A stretch of 55,635 bases of DNA from a virus (taxonomy: Duplodnaviria > Caudoviricetes), in IMG/VR virus record IMGVR_UViG_3300003319_000118, positions 1 through 55,635 of that record. One strand, written 5' to 3'. Shown in pieces: positions 6,738 to 53,992 of this stretch. The position numbers were made by a program, and so were the translations under genes. The notes beneath the pieces were generated by a model. The model ran no database searches and was not told the origin of the DNA. It saw only the letters and a list, made by a program, of their open reading frames with translations. The first letter of the stretch is position 1. The number at the start of each line of letters is the position of its first letter.

Positions 6738-7814
6738 CTACTCCCCTTTGGTCTTTGACAGCTCGGTCTTAACCTGCTCCCAGTCTTCCGCGTGGAAACC
6801 GCCCGCGAACTGCTCTTCGATCTGTTCAAGCGTGCGCTTCTCATGTTCCATGTAGTCGAGCAGGAAGGCGATGCGTTCCTTCAACTCTTCTTCTGAGAGT
6901 CGCCGATTCGGGTCAGGGGCTTGGCCGCGGAACTGCTCTTCAGAGAGGGTGCGCGAAGCTTGCGAGCGCTCAGGGCGCGTTTTAGGAGCGAAGAGGCGGG
7001 TCAGGTGTGCGGCGGCAAACTTGGCGGCGTCTCCAACGACATCGGTGTTTAAGCGGGCGCGCCGTATCTCGTCGGCCACAAGCCGCAACGCGGGCTGCCA
7101 GTCGCCGCGCCCAGTCTTTAGTTCCCTTTCGAGTTCGCGCAGGGGTCGAAGCTCATCATCATCTGTAGTAGTTGTCTTAATAGAAGTCTTGGGTTCGTCG
7201 GAAGGTCTTTGAAAATCAACGGCTTGACCCCCACCACCCAACACCAGATTTTGGTTGGTGGGTGGGGCCAGATTTTGGTTGGTAGCTGGTTGGTGGGTGG
7301 TCTGTGGCTGGTGGCTGGTGGGTGGTGCCTCCTCCGGCGTCAGGACTTCGTAGTCTGCGCCGGTGTTGTCGCCGCGGACGTAATGGCGGCGGACAAGGCC
7401 GACACGCTCTAAATGCTTCAAGTGTGCCTTCAGGGTGTTGTGGCTCACGCCCGCCCAAGCCATCACCTCATCGAGCGTCGCCCGCACCGTCCGGCGCGGC
7501 ACGACCGCCCCCCGCGTGCGCTGGTATAGGGCGTCATAGGTCTTCTTACTCTCGCCTTTGAACCGTCCCGCCGGCAGCGCATCCCTGACCACCGAGTTCG
7601 GCACGCGAACGAAATCCCGCGCGGGGGCTATAGGGTGGGTGGTAGGTGGTGGCTGGTCGGTGGCTGGTGGGTGGTGGGTGGTCTGCGCCGCGAGTGCAGG
7701 CCCGACCAAATTAAATATCGGGTGGTCGGGCGGCGGGGTAGGCGACTCAAGCGGCTTGGCCGGCTCGCGCACCGGCAGTTTCGAGGTGCGCGGTTTAGGC
7801 TTGGCGTCCTTCAT
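6738..7814 (-). CDS. putative plasmid-type replication initiator (wHTH)
   Basis: FVRVPNSV, wHTH (WAGVSHNTLKAHLKHLERVGLV); coupled to parA; internal DNA repeats. Confidence 0.65.
   Translation of the reverse strand: MKDAKPKPRTSKLPVREPAKPLESPTPPPDHPIFNLVGPALAAQTTHHPPATDQPPPTTHPIAPARDFVRVPNSVVRDALPAGRFKGESKKTYDALYQRTRGAVVPRRTVRATLDEVMAWAGVSHNTLKAHLKHLERVGLVRRHYVRGDNTGADYEVLTPEEAPPTSHQPQTTHQPATNQNLAPPTNQNLVLGGGGQAVDFQRPSDEPKTSIKTTTTDDDELRPLRELERELKTGRGDWQPALRLVADEIRRARLNTDVVGDAAKFAAAHLTRLFAPKTRPERSQASRTLSEEQFRGQAPDPNRRLSEEELKERIAFLLDYMEHEKRTLEQIEEQFAGGFHAEDWEQVKTELSKTKGE
7244..7327. repeat. iteron-like repeats within rep
   Basis: CCAGATTTTGGTTGGT at 7244 and 7268, followed by a TGGN tetramer run; second TGGN run at about 7633-7683. 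Confidence 0.65.
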
Positions 7815-8614
7815 AATTTGCTTACCACGCGCAGGCCGGGGGCGTTCGCCGCCACGCCGATGCGCTCAAGTATCTCATCGGTCAGTTCCGCGTACTGTAC
7901 CGCGCCGCGGCTGTTGGGTGCGTAATACTGAATCGGTTGATGGACGGAAGGGGATTCTTCGAGTTTGGCCTGTGCGTGTATTACGGTGCCGAAGGCTCTC
8001 TCGCCCGACTTCTCCTTGAACTCCATGAGCGACGCGCCCGAGACGTTCATCCGTTTGTCGAACATCGTGCAGACGGTTCCGAGCACGCGCAGGTTTTCGT
8101 TCAGGCCGCGCGCACCATTGATGGCGTCCATCAGGTCTTCAAAGCCGTTCAGCGCGAAGGGGGCGGCCTTGATGGGAATGATGACGAAATCCGCCGCCGC
8201 CAGCGCCGTGGTGAGCAGGAGCCCCAGATTGGGCGGCGTGTCGATGACGGCGAAGTCGTACCGACCCTGCACGGCCTTCAGCGCGCTCCGCAGTTTCGTG
8301 ATCGAAAGGGGGCTCTCGCGCTCGAACTTGGCGAGGTTGATGTTGGCCGCCACCATGTCGAGCTTCGGCACGGCCGTCGTCAGCCCCTTCTCAACAAGTG
8401 ACGCCGCCGGCTCCGACCCCCCGCCGAGCAGTACGTCGGAGAGCGTGGACGTAACCTGCTCGGGGCTGAAGAAGATTTGGGTGGCGTTGCCTTGCGGGTC
8501 GGCGTCTATCAGGAGGGTCTCGTAGTCGCGGATGGCAAGTTCGGTGCCGACGGTCGCGGCCGTCGTGCTCTTACCCACTCCGCCCTTCTGGTTAGCGACA
8601 GCTATTGTAATCAC
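7811..8614 (-). CDS. parA: ParA/Soj partition ATPase
   Basis: NQKGGVGKST, LLIDADPQGNAT, YDFAVIDTPP. Confidence 0.95.
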   Translation of the reverse strand: MITIAVANQKGGVGKSTTAATVGTELAIRDYETLLIDADPQGNATQIFFSPEQVTSTLSDVLLGGGSEPAASLVEKGLTTAVPKLDMVAANINLAKFERESPLSITKLRSALKAVQGRYDFAVIDTPPNLGLLLTTALAAADFVIIPIKAAPFALNGFEDLMDAINGARGLNENLRVLGTVCTMFDKRMNVSGASLMEFKEKSGERAFGTVIHAQAKLEESPSVHQPIQYYAPNSRGAVQYAELTDEILERIGVAANAPGLRVVSKL

Positions 8615-29589: not shown

Positions 29590-30450
29590 TTAGGGCTTGA
29601 AGACCGTGGCGCGCACGGTTGCCGCCGCCGGGTTCGAGAGCGCCGTGGTTGAGTTCGTCAGGTTACAGCGCTTCACCGTGACGGTGTTCGCACTCGACAC
29701 ATAACCTTGAAAACTCTGGTAGGTGTCTGAGGCTGCCAATGCCGCCGGGATGCCTAAAGAGACCGGGTTCCCGTCGGCCGCCCCCGTCACGGTGATGGTC
29801 AGGGAATCGCACGTCCCCGCGGCCGTCGCCCCGAAGTCCAGCGAAGCCGTCCCCGAGAGCAGGCTGAGCGTGGCCTGACTCTGAAACCTGATGTCCGCCG
29901 TGGTGTACGAGACGGCGTTGTAACCATCATGCGCCGCGTCGTACAGGTCGAGGCCGTAAGTAAACTTCGACCCCGCGGTCGAATTGTTCGACATGACCTT
30001 GAAGGCCGCGCCCGCAGTCGTCAGCGCCGAGTCGCCGTCGATGTAGGCCACCACAGCCCCGTCGGCCGTGGTCGTGCCGTCACCGATGCCGGCCAGCACG
30101 GCCCCCACAGGGTAGGTCGAGGCGTTCGTGCCCGCGATGTTGTAGTGGAAAATCCCGCCGCCGATGTAGTTCCCGGCCTTTGTCAGATTCGTGCCGAAGA
30201 CGTTCCCCATGACGGGCGAGAGGAACTTTCCCGTGGTGCCGCCGGCCGCCGCTCCCAAATTCAGGTCGATGGCGACGGGCTGGAAAGAACCTGTGCCTGT
30301 ATAGGCAGCGGGGCTATAGGTGATGTAGGCGCGCTCGGCCAGACGCTGCTCTCGGGCGGGGGAGCCGAGGCGCTGCTGCGCGAAGGCCCCCGCCACTAAA
30401 CAGCACAGGACGAGGCAGGCAAGGAGAGTGAGTTTGTTTCGTCTGTTCAT
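29590..30450 (-). CDS. head fibre/decoration-like protein with signal-peptide-like N-terminus
   Basis: Gly/Ala/Thr-rich; ASLDFG..TITVTGAADG..VSSANTVTV; GGAGG RBS. Confidence 0.65.
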   Translation of the reverse strand: MNRRNKLTLLACLVLCCLVAGAFAQQRLGSPAREQRLAERAYITYSPAAYTGTGSFQPVAIDLNLGAAAGGTTGKFLSPVMGNVFGTNLTKAGNYIGGGIFHYNIAGTNASTYPVGAVLAGIGDGTTTADGAVVAYIDGDSALTTAGAAFKVMSNNSTAGSKFTYGLDLYDAAHDGYNAVSYTTADIRFQSQATLSLLSGTASLDFGATAAGTCDSLTITVTGAADGNPVSLGIPAALAASDTYQSFQGYVSSANTVTVKRCNLTNSTTALSNPAAATVRATVFKP

Positions 30451-47042: not shown

Positions 47043-47324
47043 CTATGCGCGGCATCCTTCCGTCTCGCGGTACGCCGCTCCTCTCCTGTACATGAGCAGA
47101 AACTTTGACCATGCAGCTCTCCCCTGCACCCGAAGGTGCTCAGCCTCGCTTGCCTGTCCATGCAGCACCGCACGTCCTGCACTTGCCTCGAAGTCAAGCG
47201 CCTTCGCTAAAAGCCCGGCTGCCTCATCCTTAAGATCAGGGAAGCGGACGAAGGGACGTACCTGCGTTGCCGCTTGGTTCGTCTGCTCGCTGCCGTAGAA
47301 GTTGACTTCGGGTTGTGTGCTCAT
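47043..47324 (-). CDS. hypothetical protein
   Basis: ATGA coupling. Confidence 0.5.
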   Translation of the reverse strand: MSTQPEVNFYGSEQTNQAATQVRPFVRFPDLKDEAAGLLAKALDFEASAGRAVLHGQASEAEHLRVQGRAAWSKFLLMYRRGAAYRETEGCRA

Positions 47325-48193
47325 GCTGCTTCATTCTCCGTGTTGAAGAGGGGGAAGGCTCTGCGCTTCGCCTCCCATGCTGCTTCGTTAATCCAGAGGA
47401 CTTCCGTGCGCTCAGCCGAACCGTCAGCGCGCGCCGTCCTCTCGACTTGATGCCAGTCGGAAAATAGCTCGCCGTCGTACAGGTCGCAGCCGTAACCTGA
47501 CACGATGACCATACCCGCGCAGTGCTTCAGCTCAAGCGCCAGCGCGCGGTGTTCGTCATCACTCATTTCGGCGCGGTAGGCTTGCTGCCCCTCCATGTAG
47601 CGGACGCTGTGCGGGTAGGGTGGGTCAATATAGAACAGCGTATCGCGGCTGTCTCTGGCCTTGATGATATAGGCAGCCTCCCGATTCTCTATCTCGACGC
47701 CGCTGAAGCGCGCGGCGACTTCCGCGATGCGTTCAGGGATAGTCTGCCAATCATCGGTAACGCCGTGCGAGCCCGCTGAGGCGATGCGATTCGTGCGGAA
47801 GCCTTTCGCGTGCCCGGTGGTCGTGTGCCGGATGCCGCGACCCATGAAGGACTGTATGAGTGAGCGGCGGGCGGCCTCAACGTCATCAGCGGTCGGCTCA
47901 AAGGCGCTTAGAAATTCTTCGCGGGAGTAGGGCGTCAGAATGGAAAGTTCTGTTAGAGCTGAAGCCTTCAGCGGGTCGCGGAGCACACGGAAGAGATTGA
48001 CTACCTGCCCGTCCAGGTCGTTATAGATTTCAACGCTGGCACGGGGCTTTTGGAGCAGGACGGAGGCCGCGCCGCCAAAAGGCTCAACGTAAATCTTGTG
48101 TGGCGGGAAGTGCGAGATAATCCACGGCGCAAGTAACCACTTGCCTCCGTGGTATCTCAACACCGGCCTTGTCGGCTTCAGCTCTGCAACCAT
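47321..48193 (-). CDS. Dam-family (D12) DNA adenine methyltransferase
   Basis: RYHGGKW, YVEPFGGAASV, YNDLD, FYIDPPY. Confidence 0.92.
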   Translation of the reverse strand: MVAELKPTRPVLRYHGGKWLLAPWIISHFPPHKIYVEPFGGAASVLLQKPRASVEIYNDLDGQVVNLFRVLRDPLKASALTELSILTPYSREEFLSAFEPTADDVEAARRSLIQSFMGRGIRHTTTGHAKGFRTNRIASAGSHGVTDDWQTIPERIAEVAARFSGVEIENREAAYIIKARDSRDTLFYIDPPYPHSVRYMEGQQAYRAEMSDDEHRALALELKHCAGMVIVSGYGCDLYDGELFSDWHQVERTARADGSAERTEVLWINEAAWEAKRRAFPLFNTENEAA

Positions 48194-48707: not shown

Positions 48708-49060
48708 AACGCGGCGCCCCGGCTACCCTCCTCACACGCCCCCGAGCCACGGCCCCTCCGCGTGGGGAGCCAATCGAAAGCGTGATGCTGAGTCAGTTTT
48801 CAAGATTCAACTTGCGCGCGAGGTTCGCCGCGTCGCGGTTGGCCGCCTCGGCGTTGAACCTGCCGCCCCGCTGGGCGCGGTAGACGTTCACTTCGTACGC
48901 CCGGCGCTGCCCGTCCTCGCGGGTCTGGTGGTGCTTGCGTCTCTCTGCGATTGTTTGCTTCATATCGTTTAATACCTGTGCTCATCATTCCGGCAGTACA
49001 GGTAGATAACTACTCCTGCGGCGATGATGGCGAAGTAGAGTAAGAAGCCTGAGAAGTTGT

Positions 49061-49618
49061 TCATGGGAGTAAGTGCCCCGCCTCCGCATACGACATAGCA
49101 ATACCGTGGCAGCGATGGGCGATCCTCGGCACGTGCTGACCAAGATCAGGTTCGGGCGTGGCCTCTTTGCGCCAGTCCCAAACGTCGTAACCCGTGCGGC
49201 CGAAGCCGAAGGCCGACAACATGCAGTCCTTCGGGTAAGGGTCGCGGCAACCCTCGAAGGTTAAACGGCCGTTTAGGAAATAGATGAAGGCTTTCAGGTG
49301 GACGTGATCTCGAAACCAGTTCGCACCGACTGAGGCCGGGGTCAGGAGAAGTATTTGCCCCCCCCTTGCACACTTCTCAGCCCACGGCGCGATATTGCCG
49401 AAAGGCGGGTTGAGCCACTTGAGGCCGGGGAGCGAGCGCCAGTCAGCGGTAAGAGAATCCTGCGCAGCCGTCAGGAAGTTCTCGGCCTTCGCGTTCTCGA
49501 CACTCGCCGCCAAGTCCCACGCGGGCGTCCCGAACTTGAGCGCCACGGCGCGCATTAAATTTGCTGGCGTACCGTAGTCCTGTTTACTTTGGCCCGGCCT
49601 TTGAACAGGCATCATCAT
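49061..49618 (-). CDS. phage N6-adenine methyltransferase
   Basis: QDYGTP, WDLAAS, WLNPPF, LLTPASVGANWF, GRLTF. Confidence 0.85.
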   Translation of the reverse strand: MMMPVQRPGQSKQDYGTPANLMRAVALKFGTPAWDLAASVENAKAENFLTAAQDSLTADWRSLPGLKWLNPPFGNIAPWAEKCARGGQILLLTPASVGANWFRDHVHLKAFIYFLNGRLTFEGCRDPYPKDCMLSAFGFGRTGYDVWDWRKEATPEPDLGQHVPRIAHRCHGIAMSYAEAGHLLP

Positions 49619-50301
49619 TTCATCACCCTCGCGCAGACCGCCTCTATCCGCTCAAACGTACCTTTGCTCTCTTCCCACGCCAGCCTGAAAGGTGTCGGGT
49701 CAAGCAAGACGAGCGAACGGAGAGCACGGGTGCGTGCACGCCTCAAATCACCCTGAGCTTCAAAGGCACACGCCATTGATTCAAGTATCTCGGCCTGTAA
49801 GAGAATGTCGTTTGATTGAAGGGCTACCCGGTATGCGCGGTTGAAATACTTATGTGCGGACTCGGGTCTATCTGCCGACGCGTAGCAGCGGCCTGTGCTC
49901 GTGTCGATCTGCGCGCGTAAGGTTGAGTCTGCCGCGGCGTGCTCGAAAGCCGACGTGTAGTAGTCGAAAGCTTTGTCCGTCTGGCCGAGGTATTGAAAGA
50001 CGAGCCCAATGCTGTGCTCGTAGCGGCCGAGGAAGGCACCGCCAATCACGCGGGCGGTCGCGTAGCGCGTTGAGAGGAGTTCAAGCGTCCCCCGGTAGTC
50101 GCCCGCAAAGAAGCGGACGAGCGCCGCGTCCTTCGTCCACGTCGCGGCGGGCTGGCCGTCGGGAGCAGAGAGCAGTCTTTCGCAGCATAGGTTGCGCGCC
50201 GCGTCTAAGTCTGTATCGAGAAGCGTTCGGTAGAGGGCTAAGTCCTCGGGGCTCGTGGTGCTATCATGTGGGACTCTGGCGGCGAATCCGCTTCGACTCA
50301 C
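49615..50301 (-). CDS. tetratricopeptide-repeat protein (start uncertain)
   Basis: Repeats HSIGLVFQYLGQTDKAFDYYTSA, STGRCYA..AHKYFNRA, SMACAFEAQGDLRRA. Confidence 0.78.
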   Translation of the reverse strand: MSRSGFAARVPHDSTTSPEDLALYRTLLDTDLDAARNLCCERLLSAPDGQPAATWTKDAALVRFFAGDYRGTLELLSTRYATARVIGGAFLGRYEHSIGLVFQYLGQTDKAFDYYTSAFEHAAADSTLRAQIDTSTGRCYASADRPESAHKYFNRAYRVALQSNDILLQAEILESMACAFEAQGDLRRARTRALRSLVLLDPTPFRLAWEESKGTFERIEAVCARVMK

Positions 50302-50323
50302 AACCACTACAGGAGAACATTCT

Positions 50324-50536
50324 ATGAGACGCTTACTTATCACCGGCGCGCTCGTGTGCGCGCTGTTCACGGTCGCCTTCGCGGGCCCGCCCGTCTCGCC
50401 GGGTGACGACCCCTGCATCCCGACACCGGAAGTCCCTTGCCCCACAGACGACGAATCGGCTAACAGCTCGTCTACGTCGGGCTCGTTCATTACAGTGCTG
50501 ATTAACGGTGTGCTGACCATCGTCTATCTGCCTTAA
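50324..50536 (+). CDS. small secreted pro-peptide (70 aa)
   Basis: AGGAG RBS; signal peptide ending AFA; Pro/acidic linker; hydrophobic C-terminus. Confidence 0.72.
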   Translation: MRRLLITGALVCALFTVAFAGPPVSPGDDPCIPTPEVPCPTDDESANSSSTSGSFITVLINGVLTIVYLP

Positions 50537-50623
50537 CCCTTCAGTCCCGGCCGACGGCCGCGCCCCTTTTCGCCTCCCCAGACGAGCCGAAGCACTGACG
50601 CCGCCGGCCGAGAGTTCAATCCT

Positions 50624-51124
50624 TCATCCGTCCATCCCCGTCGTGACTCTCTGCGCCTCGCCTTGAGACATCACGCGCGCGCCTGTCTGCACTCTGCCGA
50701 GCGTCTCAACCAGCAAGTCGCGTGCGGCGTCATACTCTTCTGGCGTCGCCTTCCTCGCCGCGTGGTTAGATTGGACGGACTTGAAGTAATACCATGCGGC
50801 GTCGAGCTCATCGCCGCATGGTGGCGTACTCTGACGGCGGGGACGAAACCTTGACAGCACGGCCCAGATGGCGTCCCCCAGCCCGGCGCGGGTCTTCTCG
50901 GCGCCGTAGCAGAACATCAGGATTTGGTAGGCGAGTGATTCCGTGGCGTCGTTGGGGTTGAGCTGCTTCGTGAGCGTGCCGTACGGGATGCGCGAGTTGA
51001 CGGCCGTCTTCTTCTCCTCGCCCCACTCGAAGAGGTTGTAGACGGCTTTTTCAAGCTCCTCTTGATCCACGGGCTCTAAGTTATCCGCCATAGATAAAAC
51101 CTCTGAGAAAGTGACTGGATTCAA
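50624..51124 (-). CDS. CII-like regulatory protein
   Basis: IPYGTLTKQLNPND HTH-like motif; downstream of cro-like gene. Confidence 0.55.
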   Translation of the reverse strand: MNPVTFSEVLSMADNLEPVDQEELEKAVYNLFEWGEEKKTAVNSRIPYGTLTKQLNPNDATESLAYQILMFCYGAEKTRAGLGDAIWAVLSRFRPRRQSTPPCGDELDAAWYYFKSVQSNHAARKATPEEYDAARDLLVETLGRVQTGARVMSQGEAQRVTTGMDG

Positions 51125-52276: not shown

Positions 52277-53020
52277 TCAAAGCGTACAGACTCGGCACCG
52301 TCCATCACGTCCAAAAAGTTTCATCTGCCCGGCGTGTCTCGGTCGGCTCCCGCCCTCGAATTTTTGCCGCAGTCGCATGAGCGGCGCGGGCCATGAGTCA
52401 CGCCCCGGCGAGCGGAACGAACAAGGCTGGCCGTGTAGCTCGGAAACGACCGTCTCTAATTCTTCCCCTTGCTGGAATCGCGCGGGATGGTCTTTCCAGA
52501 GGTTCCACCACTCCCCGATTTGTTGGTCGTAGCAGAGCGCACAGTCAGTCCGCTCGGGAACGCGGACGCCGCGCTCATCAAGAAAGGTAAGAACGTCTTT
52601 GAGCCCCCAGCCCCATTCGCGGAAAGGAAACCTTTGCGTAACGCCTTCGATGTGGCCGTAGATACCGCCTTCTCTCTCTTCCTCGTCGGCACGAAGCCCG
52701 ACGTAGGAGACGCAAGGCGAAGCCGTGAAAAGAAACTGCTCGTAAGGCTCGATCTTGAGTATGCGCGTACACCAGCGCTGGCGATTGTTCGGCAGAGCCC
52801 GCTGAATCTGAATCAGGCTGGACAGTGACTTGCCACACGAGACAACGGTCAGGGGCGTACCTAAAAGCGCGGCGAGTGAGCGCCAATGCTCGACCATCTC
52901 GGGGAGTTCGTTGCCGGTTGGAGTGATGACGTACTCATAGGCGCACGGCTCACGTTCCGCCAACGCCAGCGCCAGCGCCGTCGAATCTTTACCGCCGGAG
53001 AGTGCGAGTATGTGTCTCAT
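52277..53020 (-). CDS. PAPS reductase family protein
   Basis: LSGGKDS, TGNELPE, RWCTRILKIEP, VGLRADE, RTDCALC. Confidence 0.88.
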   Translation of the reverse strand: MRHILALSGGKDSTALALALAEREPCAYEYVITPTGNELPEMVEHWRSLAALLGTPLTVVSCGKSLSSLIQIQRALPNNRQRWCTRILKIEPYEQFLFTASPCVSYVGLRADEEEREGGIYGHIEGVTQRFPFREWGWGLKDVLTFLDERGVRVPERTDCALCYDQQIGEWWNLWKDHPARFQQGEELETVVSELHGQPCSFRSPGRDSWPAPLMRLRQKFEGGSRPRHAGQMKLFGRDGRCRVCTL

Positions 53021-53134: not shown

Positions 53135-53326
53135 ATGCCGACTCGTAACACCGAACTCTGTCCGTACTGTCAAAAGGTCGTGGCCGTCACCGCCAAGAAC
53201 TGCCCCGGGTGTGGCGGCGACCTTCGCAGCCATCGCAACGCGCCGGCGGTCAAGGTCTTTCTCATCATCGTGGCCGTGGTCGTCGTGCTCGTCTTCATCC
53301 TTACCAGGCTCGGCGTGCTCAAGTAG
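53135..53326 (+). CDS. zinc-ribbon membrane protein
   Basis: CPYC..CPGCG plus TM. Confidence 0.65.
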   Translation: MPTRNTELCPYCQKVVAVTAKNCPGCGGDLRSHRNAPAVKVFLIIVAVVVVLVFILTRLGVLK

Positions 53327-53364: not shown

Positions 53365-53559
53365 TCATGCGGCGGCCTCTGCTGGCTCCTCTTCGGGGCG
53401 CAGTTCGGGGTGTCGCTTCGCCAGCTTCGATAGCTTCTCGTCTATCGCTTCACGGACGATTTGAGACGCGGGCGTGTCCAGAATTTCGGAAGCCTTGTTA
53501 AGCCGCTCCTTATGGTCGCCGCTCGCGCGAATGTAAAGTCTCGTATCTTTTTTGCTCAT
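53365..53559 (-). CDS. ribbon-helix-helix regulator in Cro position
   Basis: TRLYIRA strand; ASQIVREAIDEKL; GAGG RBS. Confidence 0.78.
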   Translation of the reverse strand: MSKKDTRLYIRASGDHKERLNKASEILDTPASQIVREAIDEKLSKLAKRHPELRPEEEPAEAAA

Positions 53560-53590
53560 TTGTCGCCTCGTGCGCCTGATGTCCGCGCGT

Positions 53591-53681
53591 TGTACGGACA
53601 AATACCACGAATGTACGCACATTGTCAACCACTTTCTTCTAAGGCTCAATTGAAAGGAAAGGTACGCCTGTTGTATGCACA
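53591..53681. promoter_or_regulatory. switch region with repeated operators
   Basis: TGTACGGACA 53591, TGTACGCACA 53612, GGTACGCCTG 53661, TGTATGCACA 53672; - strand TTGACA at 53628-53623. Confidence 0.75.
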
Positions 53682-53686
53682 CACTT

Positions 53687-53992
53687 ATGGGCAAAGAGAC
53701 GAGAGGCATGAGAATGTATTTCAGGGTAGCGGAGAGCTTTAAGAATGAGTTCACCGCTGCGGCTATGGTTAGAGAGCAAGACCCTTCAGACGCCTTTCGG
53801 GTCATAGGCAGGGCTTTTATCGAGCGGGTTAAGCAGGAGAGTCCCGAAAGATATTCGGAGACTCTTGAAGTCGTTCGCGGGGGCAACAGCGCGCAGACGT
53901 TAATGTCGGAAGACGAGAGCGCGGCAGTAAAGGAGGCGTACAAAAAGTCTCGAAAGGCTAAACCGCAAGGTAAGCACAATTCCAAAAGGTAG
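53687..53992 (+). CDS. RHH-like regulator in repressor position
   Basis: MRMYFRV strand followed by two helices (DPSDAFR). Confidence 0.6.
   Translation: MGKETRGMRMYFRVAESFKNEFTAAAMVREQDPSDAFRVIGRAFIERVKQESPERYSETLEVVRGGNSAQTLMSEDESAAVKEAYKKSRKAKPQGKHNSKR

Follow-up and report, generated by a model that had tools for sequence, protein, structure and literature searches.

The window analysed here, the whole 55,635-nucleotide stretch of the virus record IMGVR_UViG_3300003319_000118, carries at 49615-50536 two genes that probably make up a real, conserved and undescribed pair: a minus-strand gene for a tetratricopeptide repeat (TPR) protein and a plus-strand open reading frame (ORF) of 70 aa for a predicted exported pre-protein. 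Sequence comparisons indicate that the pair is probably conserved across a family of about two dozen related metagenome sequences. The favoured explanation, put forward tentatively, is a conserved two-gene cassette in which a cytoplasmic, stand-alone TPR superhelix is combined with a small membrane-held Sec pre-protein, the two genes being mutually antisense. An earlier note on this DNA had taken the TPR gene and the signal-peptide ORF for real neighbours, and both ORFs were found where it had placed them; its reading of the two as a peptide communication system is possible but improbable, and is not the best-supported one. The parts of the locus are the following:

49615..50307, minus strand: probable extent of the TPR gene, 230 aa, with a GTG start at 50307 and the stop TGA at 49617-49615.
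50308..50520, minus strand: N-terminal extension of a 301-aa ORF, probably an untranslated mirror (shadow) frame of the small gene.
50311..50316, plus strand: Shine-Dalgarno (SD) sequence AGGAGA, 7 nt before ATG 50324 and the strongest in the region.
50324..50536, plus strand: 70-aa ORF, predicted exported pre-protein, the record's own call P0003.
50324..50383, plus strand: predicted signal peptide, residues 1-20, with an MRR n-region, a 17-residue stretch of hydrophobic and small residues and A-F-A, followed by G21.
50384..50485, plus strand: acidic Pro/Ser/Thr-rich linker with two Cys, by sequence composition.
50486..50533, plus strand: hydrophobic C-terminal segment F55-P70, 16 residues, a possible membrane anchor or second half of a two-helix hairpin.

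The start codons of the TPR gene (50307) and the small gene (50324) stand head-to-head, 17 bp apart. The genes had been described as divergent, which holds from start to start but understates the arrangement: the whole 70-aa ORF lies antisense within the 301-aa minus-strand ORF (49615-50520). The ribosome-binding site, Sec-type leader, acidic Pro linker and hydrophobic tail reported for the small ORF were all read in the sequence. The protein would be exported via its leader, and predicted cleavage after A20, between A-F-A and G, would leave a 50-residue remainder with six D/E, no K/R, nine Pro and two Cys. In the C-terminal segment, the Kyte-Doolittle hydropathy reaches 2.25 in a 15-residue window and 1.58 in a 19-residue window, the latter borderline for a membrane helix. 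Because of its composition and conserved hydrophobic end, the product fits a tiny exported, membrane-retained protein. Its Atlas model resembles small two-helix membrane proteins, although these look-alikes are sub-threshold (0.88) and serve as a lead only. The 70-aa protein had no match in Pfam, PHROG or NCBIfam, nothing meaningful was returned by PADLOC for it or for the TPR protein, and no homologue was found among called proteins of 38-123 aa. Two special export signals were considered and rejected. A PEP-CTERM/GlyGly-CTERM sorting signal does not agree with an end in Y-L-P without a basic residue, nor with a sole P-E-x-P 20 residues before the helix, and no NCBIfam match was obtained at E <= 10. 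In the case of a lipobox, A-L-V precedes the Cys with no usual small residue, and the Cys stands in the middle of the hydrophobic core.

To estimate chance occurrence, a crude rule for an SD and a signal-peptide-like start was applied to the 1779 start codons of the window with at least 40 aa downstream. An SD was present at 181 of these and a signal-peptide-like start at 11; about 1.1 were expected to show both and two did, and the combination alone is not rare enough to rule out chance. The second start that passed belongs to a 286-aa ORF in the structural module (29590-30450, minus strand) without a Pfam match. The small ORF is raised above chance by its conservation in relatives. Its G+C content at third codon positions (GC3), 0.75, equals that of its neighbours, and thus it is not a recent import.

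The Pfam family TPR_12 was detected at residues 169-234 of the 301-aa ORF (E 1.5e-13; 51.1 bits against a gathering cut-off of 30.1). The record's own gene call, P0001, is the 230-aa form from GTG 50307, and a Val cluster marks the start point both of this short call and of the short-form relatives. No SD is present upstream of GTG 50307, and therefore the exact start of the TPR gene is inferred. The AlphaFold2 (AF2) model of the 230-aa form (predicted local distance difference test, pLDDT, 92.8) has 12 helices from residue 20; the first 14-19 residues or so are disordered and the remainder is TPR. With a score above the gathering cut-off and an all-alpha repeat fold, the protein belongs to the TPR_12 scaffold class and, as modelled, is a generic TPR_12 superhelix of the peptide-binding type with five to six repeats. 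The best solved-structure matches by Foldseek were LGN/Pins, kinesin light chain (KLC), BtubC and 3gw4, an uncharacterised Deinococcus protein; the top LGN-type matches were 3sf4 (E 2.8e-6) and 3ro2 (TMq 0.79). A helix-turn-helix (HTH), whose absence had been pointed out before, was indeed found neither by Pfam nor in the all-TPR fold, and the sole PHROG match was a weak one (0.0005) to a 'transcriptional regulator' family. Since no DNA-binding or enzymatic domain is present, the protein would act only by holding proteins or peptides. The most conserved residues, C112, E114, R115, W128, K130 and D131 in long-form numbering, are situated in the second and third helices, which suggests a conserved partner site.

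A word-based search retrieved one close relative, P0002 (299 aa, 66% identical, extension covered). A HMMER search against 1.84 billion representatives gave 1044 matches at E <= 1e-3. Among the 150 matches listed, 29 proteins (154-320 aa, 25-55% identity) covered the TPR protein over its full length; the other 121 listed, generic TPR proteins of at least 588 aa in which only a repeat pair aligned, were left out. The family alignment accordingly comprised 31 rows: the 29 relatives, the window and P0002. The sequence preceding the TPR domain is at least 40 residues long in 22 rows and at least 20 in 24, and seven rows begin at or after the Val cluster. The 20 family members looked up were all metagenomic (JGI, Logan and ENA), 19 of them singleton clusters and one, P0018, a cluster of three. 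Protein-pattern searches for the relatives' DNA gave no match in viral contigs, genome contigs, cultured phages or plasmids, and just seven weak generic TPR loci in metagenome contigs (L003-L009, 24-34% identity), which were not used.

Because third codon positions are shared between the two frames, two bases of a plus-frame codon are determined by the first two of each minus-frame codon. Apart from the ambiguity of third bases, the plus-frame protein of the relatives can thus be derived from the minus-frame protein, a procedure checked on the window itself. A plus-strand small gene was compatible with all 24 readable rows, which answers in part the question, raised by the earlier note, of whether the two genes occur together; the adjacency persists down to 30-35% TPR identity. 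The minus-frame pair Ser-Pro, which corresponds to plus-strand GGnGA, is kept in most of these rows (Ser in 21/24, Pro in 23/24), and GGnGA or GGnGT from Ser/Thr-Pro is present in 23/24. The start column lies two to three minus-frame residues upstream of this pair, which places it 4 to 7 nt past the SD on the plus strand. In 19 rows it holds only I, M, T, N or K, equivalent to plus-strand ATG, GTG or TTG; four others show an Ile in the next alignment column, and the remaining row reads Leu, then Thr. The leader shows two basic-capable positions and a hydrophobic stretch in which A-L-V-(C/W)-A (minus-frame S-A-H/Q-T) is fixed. At the cleavage site, position -3 is Ala, Val or Thr in 22/24 rows, -1 is Ala in 16/24, and +1 is Gly in 24/24 (minus-frame Pro). 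The linker is variable in length and rich in P, T and G, with a P-(C/W)-P motif in about half of the rows, and the C-terminal end is a hydrophobic stretch containing Gly.

Which of the two frames is under selection was assessed by a mirror-substitution test, in which pairwise substitutions were scored per alignment column with codon-box BLOSUM scores in the minus and in the plus frame. Over residues 2-70 of the long form (68 columns) the scores were -1.12 for the minus and -0.81 for the plus frame, with 23 columns favouring minus and 44 plus (p 0.011). Over the TPR core (204 columns) they were -0.87 and -1.12, with 122 columns favouring minus and 81 plus (p 0.002). The extension differed from the core with p 2e-4, and 68-column windows of the core gave differences of 0.17 to 0.43, none near the -0.31 of the extension. 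The outcome held without the window sequence (p 0.04). The family alignment was built on minus-frame residues, which biases it against a plus-frame result. The plus preference was most marked in the leader (p 0.03) and in the tail (p 0.05) and absent over the linker (residues 21-40); at residues 71-92 neither frame was favoured. Between the window and P0002, the minus-frame changes at sites of plus-strand features are radical (K/D, T/K, V/R and I/K). In the AF2 model of the long form, made with the family alignment, residues 1-90 are unstructured (pLDDT 34-53). Together with the relatives, these data make it quite likely that the plus-strand small gene is real; the 301-aa form is then probably a shadow and the TPR protein a product of about 230 aa starting near 50307.

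The cassette proposed here is part of a run of leftward, probably early genes in an uncultured tailed phage. The TPR gene would start at or near GTG 50307 and would be translationally coupled to the Dam-like methyltransferase gene that follows it. Cleavage of the 70-aa Sec pre-protein behind A-F-A would give a 50-residue stalk, acidic and rich in Pro, that stands on the outside of the cytoplasmic membrane and is anchored by a hydrophobic helix at its C-terminus; with an uncut leader, a two-helix hairpin would form instead. In either form the product would be a small envelope protein, not a diffusible pheromone, and the 301-aa ORF from ATG 50520 would be the mirror frame of its gene, probably untranslated. 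The small gene is wholly antisense to transcripts that reach the TPR gene from upstream, so that its promoter must lie inside the TPR gene, presumably within the first TPR codons, a stretch that is conserved yet disordered. The two mRNAs would be complementary across each other's ribosome sites, and hence expression of one should damp the other. A physical link between the two proteins may also exist; hardly any part of the exported product is within reach of a cytoplasmic TPR protein, unless a fragment of it were released and taken up again.

Several observations weigh against this explanation. The promoter and terminator scan of the locus found zero promoter-like sites, and its sole terminator-like site is inside the TPR gene. 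No RNA run is among the public runs listed as containing the sequence. The tail is short, with a borderline 19-residue hydropathy and no basic residue after it, which makes membrane anchoring uncertain. The relatives' plus-strand ORFs were inferred from minus-frame proteins, and third bases as well as C/W/stop and Y/stop positions are ambiguous in them. In most relatives the long form was the one called, and a weak AAGG precedes ATG 50520 by 10 nt, against no SD at GTG 50307. A codon log-odds model built from 27 genes of this phage resolved sense from mirror in 99% of 66-codon controls (+16.0, standard deviation (sd) 5.5, versus -21.4, sd 8.1), but at 50308-50520 it gave +0.6 for plus and -0.4 for minus, neither frame resembling a normal gene. 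Finally, at least 22 of the 31 relatives have no minus-frame stop opposite the small ORF, as compared with an open mirror frame in 16% of 66-codon windows of ordinary genes here, and the extension could have been kept open by selection. This openness is attributed here to the composition of the small protein, without selection: mirror stops in this register arise opposite Tyr, His and Gln codons only, and the small protein has no His or Gln and a single Tyr, which gives the minus-frame stop just upstream of ATG 50520.

The window sequence alone does not settle which frame is read at 50308-50520. GC3 cannot separate the frames, as the third positions are common to both ORFs. Four-fold third-base usage (plus +2.5, minus -1.5; controls 1.43, sd 1.58, and -0.01, sd 1.78) weakly favours plus, and the count of plus-frame second-base T did not separate the extension from the core. 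A position-identity comparison was rejected as a frame test, being confounded by ambiguous Leu, Arg and Ser codons, with position 1 exceeding position 2 even in the core.

Among the rival explanations, peptide signalling of the RRNPP kind survives best, although it is unlikely. The 70-aa pre-protein would be exported and processed, its hydrophobic end or a piece of the leader being released, re-imported and bound in the TPR groove; with similarly low probability, the output would be an HTH-less TPR protein that alters a partner protein as Rap does and biases the early programme. The RRNPP signature given in PMC10075063 consists of a propeptide of 10-100 aa with a Sec/SPase I signal, a receptor of 250-500 aa with TPRs, and directly adjacent genes. 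The small ORF, at 70 aa, is within the propeptide range, and its n-, h- and c-regions with A-F-A/G pass the crude rule that only 11 of the 1779 starts pass, a heuristic sign of a Sec-type leader whose pattern is conserved in relatives. The partner has TPRs, its fold is of the peptide-binding type seen in LGN and KLC, the genes are directly adjacent, with starts at 50307 and 50324 in a divergent arrangement, and the pairing is kept in every readable relative. However, the TPR protein of about 230 aa falls below the receptor range, which only the 301-aa ORF, read here as a shadow, would reach. Its likeness to Rap is generic, no closer than that to LGN, KLC or designed TPRs: in the PDB profile search, RapF, RapJ and RapI were matched over just one or two repeats (E 3.7e-9 for one repeat pair), level with OGT and LGN, and in the Foldseek listing Rap structures rank 43-49 (TMq 0.50-0.60). 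The viral structure matches (BFVD) were giant-virus repeat proteins and glycosyltransferase TPR arms, with neither AimR nor Rap near the top. Thus, the PDB profile, Foldseek and BFVD searches gave no specific homology to the RRNPP subfamilies Rap, NprR, PlcR, PrgX, Rgg or AimR, and neither Pfam nor AF2 indicated an output domain (HTH or Rap N-terminal bundle) in the 230-aa form. Moreover, the leader is the most conserved part of the small protein, the tail resembles a membrane helix and not a soluble signal of 5-10 residues, and mutually antisense mRNAs argue against joint expression in one cell. The pair resembles RRNPP systems but cannot be filed among them; the communication claim of the earlier note is weakened accordingly, and its soluble pro-peptide gives way to an anchored envelope protein, which the conserved membrane-helix-like tail suits better. 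In the sources consulted, phage peptide communication is shown only in Bacillus-type hosts, and a literature search, which was not exhaustive, found no report of it in Acidobacteria or Gram-negative phages.

A second rival takes the 301-aa ORF as real, the TPR protein bearing a disordered Ser/Thr/Gly/Pro-rich arm from ATG 50520 and the 70-aa ORF being an accidental mirror frame. The long calls in most relatives, the AAGG before ATG 50520, the open minus frame and the neutral codon log-odds would all agree with it, HMMER aligns the relatives from query residue 2-3, and one start with an SD and a signal-peptide-like beginning is expected per window by chance. On the other hand, the mirror test changes sign exactly over the extension, which has no predicted structure, and the record's own gene caller preferred the short form and the small ORF. 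The conserved minus-frame residues (S-P; I/M/T/N/K; S-A-H/Q-T; P-A-x-A) make no sense as protein, and each maps to a plus-strand feature, namely the SD, the NTG start, the leader core or the cleavage site, where the minus-frame changes are radical. This rival is therefore considered decidedly improbable, and translation of the extension in any form, alone or together with the small gene, is unlikely. A TPR start at 50520, named earlier as a finding that would overturn the proposal, is disfavoured by the mirror-substitution test, if not fully.

If the small gene is read as preferred here, about 20 database 'TPR proteins' of 250-320 aa probably carry false N-terminal stretches of 50-90 residues that hide an uncalled small signal-peptide gene. 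The relatives suspected of this are P0005-P0008, P0011-P0020, P0022, P0024, P0033, P0036, P0058 and P0109. Such false extensions would be a general annotation trap in GC-rich phage DNA.

The features next to the pair are given below:

49061..49618, minus strand: Dam-like N6-adenine methyltransferase gene (Pfam PF05869, E 3.3e-18; phrog_111, E 1.5e-28), its start overlapping the TPR stop as ATGA.
50545..50613: long GC-rich hairpin, flanked by two convergent stops, that of the small ORF (50536) and that of the upstream minus-strand gene (50624).
50624..51091, minus strand: upstream gene of 155 aa; ATG 51091 with the SD CAGAGG is a better start than TTG 51124.

As minus-strand RNA, the hairpin has a folding energy of -46.8 kcal/mol (z -2.9; 1 of 200 shuffles equally stable), and as plus-strand RNA -27.5 kcal/mol (z -1.2). 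It is not followed by a U-tract, and the consensus scan did not call a terminator there. Its position between convergent stops fits, as a weaker support, a separate plus-strand unit. The 155-aa gene, previously called CII-like, had no match in Pfam, PHROG, NCBIfam or PDB searches, so that this label was not borne out; only three relatives of it were found. Directly 3' of the Dam-like gene, with its start overlapping the end of that gene, a 31-aa hydrophobic ORF (48969-49064, minus strand) may encode a small membrane protein. The same gene run contains a D12-class adenine methylase gene (47321-48193, minus strand) and a gene for an SspD-like PAPS-reductase protein (52277-53020, minus strand; PADLOC SspD E 2.6e-46; phrog_424); with the Dam-like gene, these appear to form a cluster for DNA modification or anti-restriction that surrounds the TPR gene.

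The third rival regards the two genes as unrelated neighbours whose starts merely interlock: the small gene would be a moron-type insert with its own SD and hairpin, e.g., for a prophage superinfection-exclusion membrane protein, and the TPR gene would belong with the DNA-modification or anti-restriction genes. In its favour, the small ORF is the only plus-strand gene in the minus run from about 53.0 to 42.6 kb and has both the strongest SD of the region and a hairpin past its stop, while the TPR gene overlaps the Dam-like gene and has DNA-modification genes on both sides. It is nevertheless improbable, as an adjacency held down to such low TPR identity is unusual for a moron in mosaic phage genomes and the GC3 of the small ORF does not differ from that of its neighbours.

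The record is linear, with a G+C content of 58.6% and an estimated completeness of 64%. Its content by Pfam and PHROG is that of a tailed phage: a large terminase (TerL), a gene-transfer-agent-like tail set, a primase-helicase, a replisome organiser, two adenine methylases and the SspD-like PAPS reductase. Between about 53.0 and 11.1 kb, almost every gene is on the minus strand. This run is headed by a lower-GC stretch (53365-53992) with two small back-to-back ORFs that have ribbon-helix-helix-like starts, the minus one being the last 65 or so codons of ORF 53365-53985 and the plus one 53675-53992; neither matched a family at the thresholds used, and the pair is a candidate genetic switch. Near it, a 63-aa membrane-type ORF (53135-53326, plus strand) shows two CxxC pairs (zinc-ribbon-like) followed by a hydrophobic helix. 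An IS605 OrfB/TnpB-type gene is found inside the phage record at 748-1857 on the minus strand (OrfB_IS605, E 1.4e-28; Cas12f1-like TNB, E 1.2e-18; HTH_OrfB). At 6738-8614, also on the minus strand, a gene for a ParA-type ATPase (AAA_31, E 5.7e-40) and, after it, one for a 358-aa protein that weakly matches HTH_20 suggest a partition system; the phage may persist as a plasmid-like prophage. Only one public run contained the sequence, a DNA run labelled root metagenome. The window TerL is 23-30% identical to those of cultured phages spread over many phyla, 30% being the maximum, the window ParA gave no host-informative signal, and the Atlas taxa for the TPR protein were mixed; the 'non-Firmicute' phage of the earlier note is thus a guess only.

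When compared with known systems, the 70-aa protein is similar to small phage inner-membrane proteins of the superinfection-exclusion or moron class in size, in leader or hairpin topology and in its orientation opposite to the lytic genes. It has, however, no sequence or family link to them, and their genes are not known to occur in such a fixed head-to-head arrangement with a TPR gene. LGN/Pins and kinesin light chain, the best structural matches of the TPR protein, possess superhelical TPR_12 grooves that bind extended peptides; unlike it, they are eukaryotic scaffolds, and with an identity of about 13-22% they resemble it in fold class only. The arbitrium system AimR-AimP-AimX of SPbeta-like Bacillus phages is also phage-borne and combines a TPR receptor with a small exported peptide among early genes. 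AimR is an HTH-TPR DNA-binding dimer and AimP yields a hexapeptide, whereas the window TPR protein has no HTH, no aimX-like target was identified, and AimR is not among the best viral structural matches.

The Rap-Phr systems share with the pair an HTH-less TPR protein with TPR_12-type repeats beside a small gene with a Sec leader. Rap proteins act through protein contacts and have an N-terminal helix bundle; phr is located 3' of rap on the same strand, and Phr ends in a soluble penta- or hexapeptide. By contrast, the window TPR protein has about 230 aa, all TPR, against about 375-390 aa in the solved Rap entries, the window genes are head-to-head and antisense, and the product ends in a 16-residue hydrophobic segment; the likeness of sequence and fold to Rap is generic only. 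In PrgX/PrgQ of pCF10 and Rgg/SHP, the receptor and peptide genes diverge, their transcripts overlap and are antisense to one another, and the peptides are hydrophobic, with PrgQ and SHP propeptides of about 20-25 aa; in enterococcal pheromones a piece of the leader serves as the peptide signal. The window pair is like them in that TPR and small-protein genes face away from each other and are mutually antisense. It differs in that their receptors carry an HTH, their hosts are Firmicutes and their peptides have no Sec leaders, PrgQ and SHP being exported by PptAB as propeptides without such leaders according to PMC10075063. It is hardly probable that a family of soil phages, possibly with Gram-negative-type hosts (e.g., Acidobacteriota), has a minimal peptide-sensing pair wired as a mutually antisense toggle, in which the HTH-less 230-aa TPR protein senses a hydrophobic fragment of the small exported protein and directs the early programme by way of protein contacts; if true, this would amount to an independent and strongly reduced equivalent, outside Firmicutes, of Rap-Phr and PrgX-PrgQ. 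The soberer reading is a small envelope protein, conserved and not described before, whose gene is locked in antisense orientation to an early gene, and the pair offers a concrete small test case, two genes within 0.9 kb, from an uncultured root-soil phage lineage.

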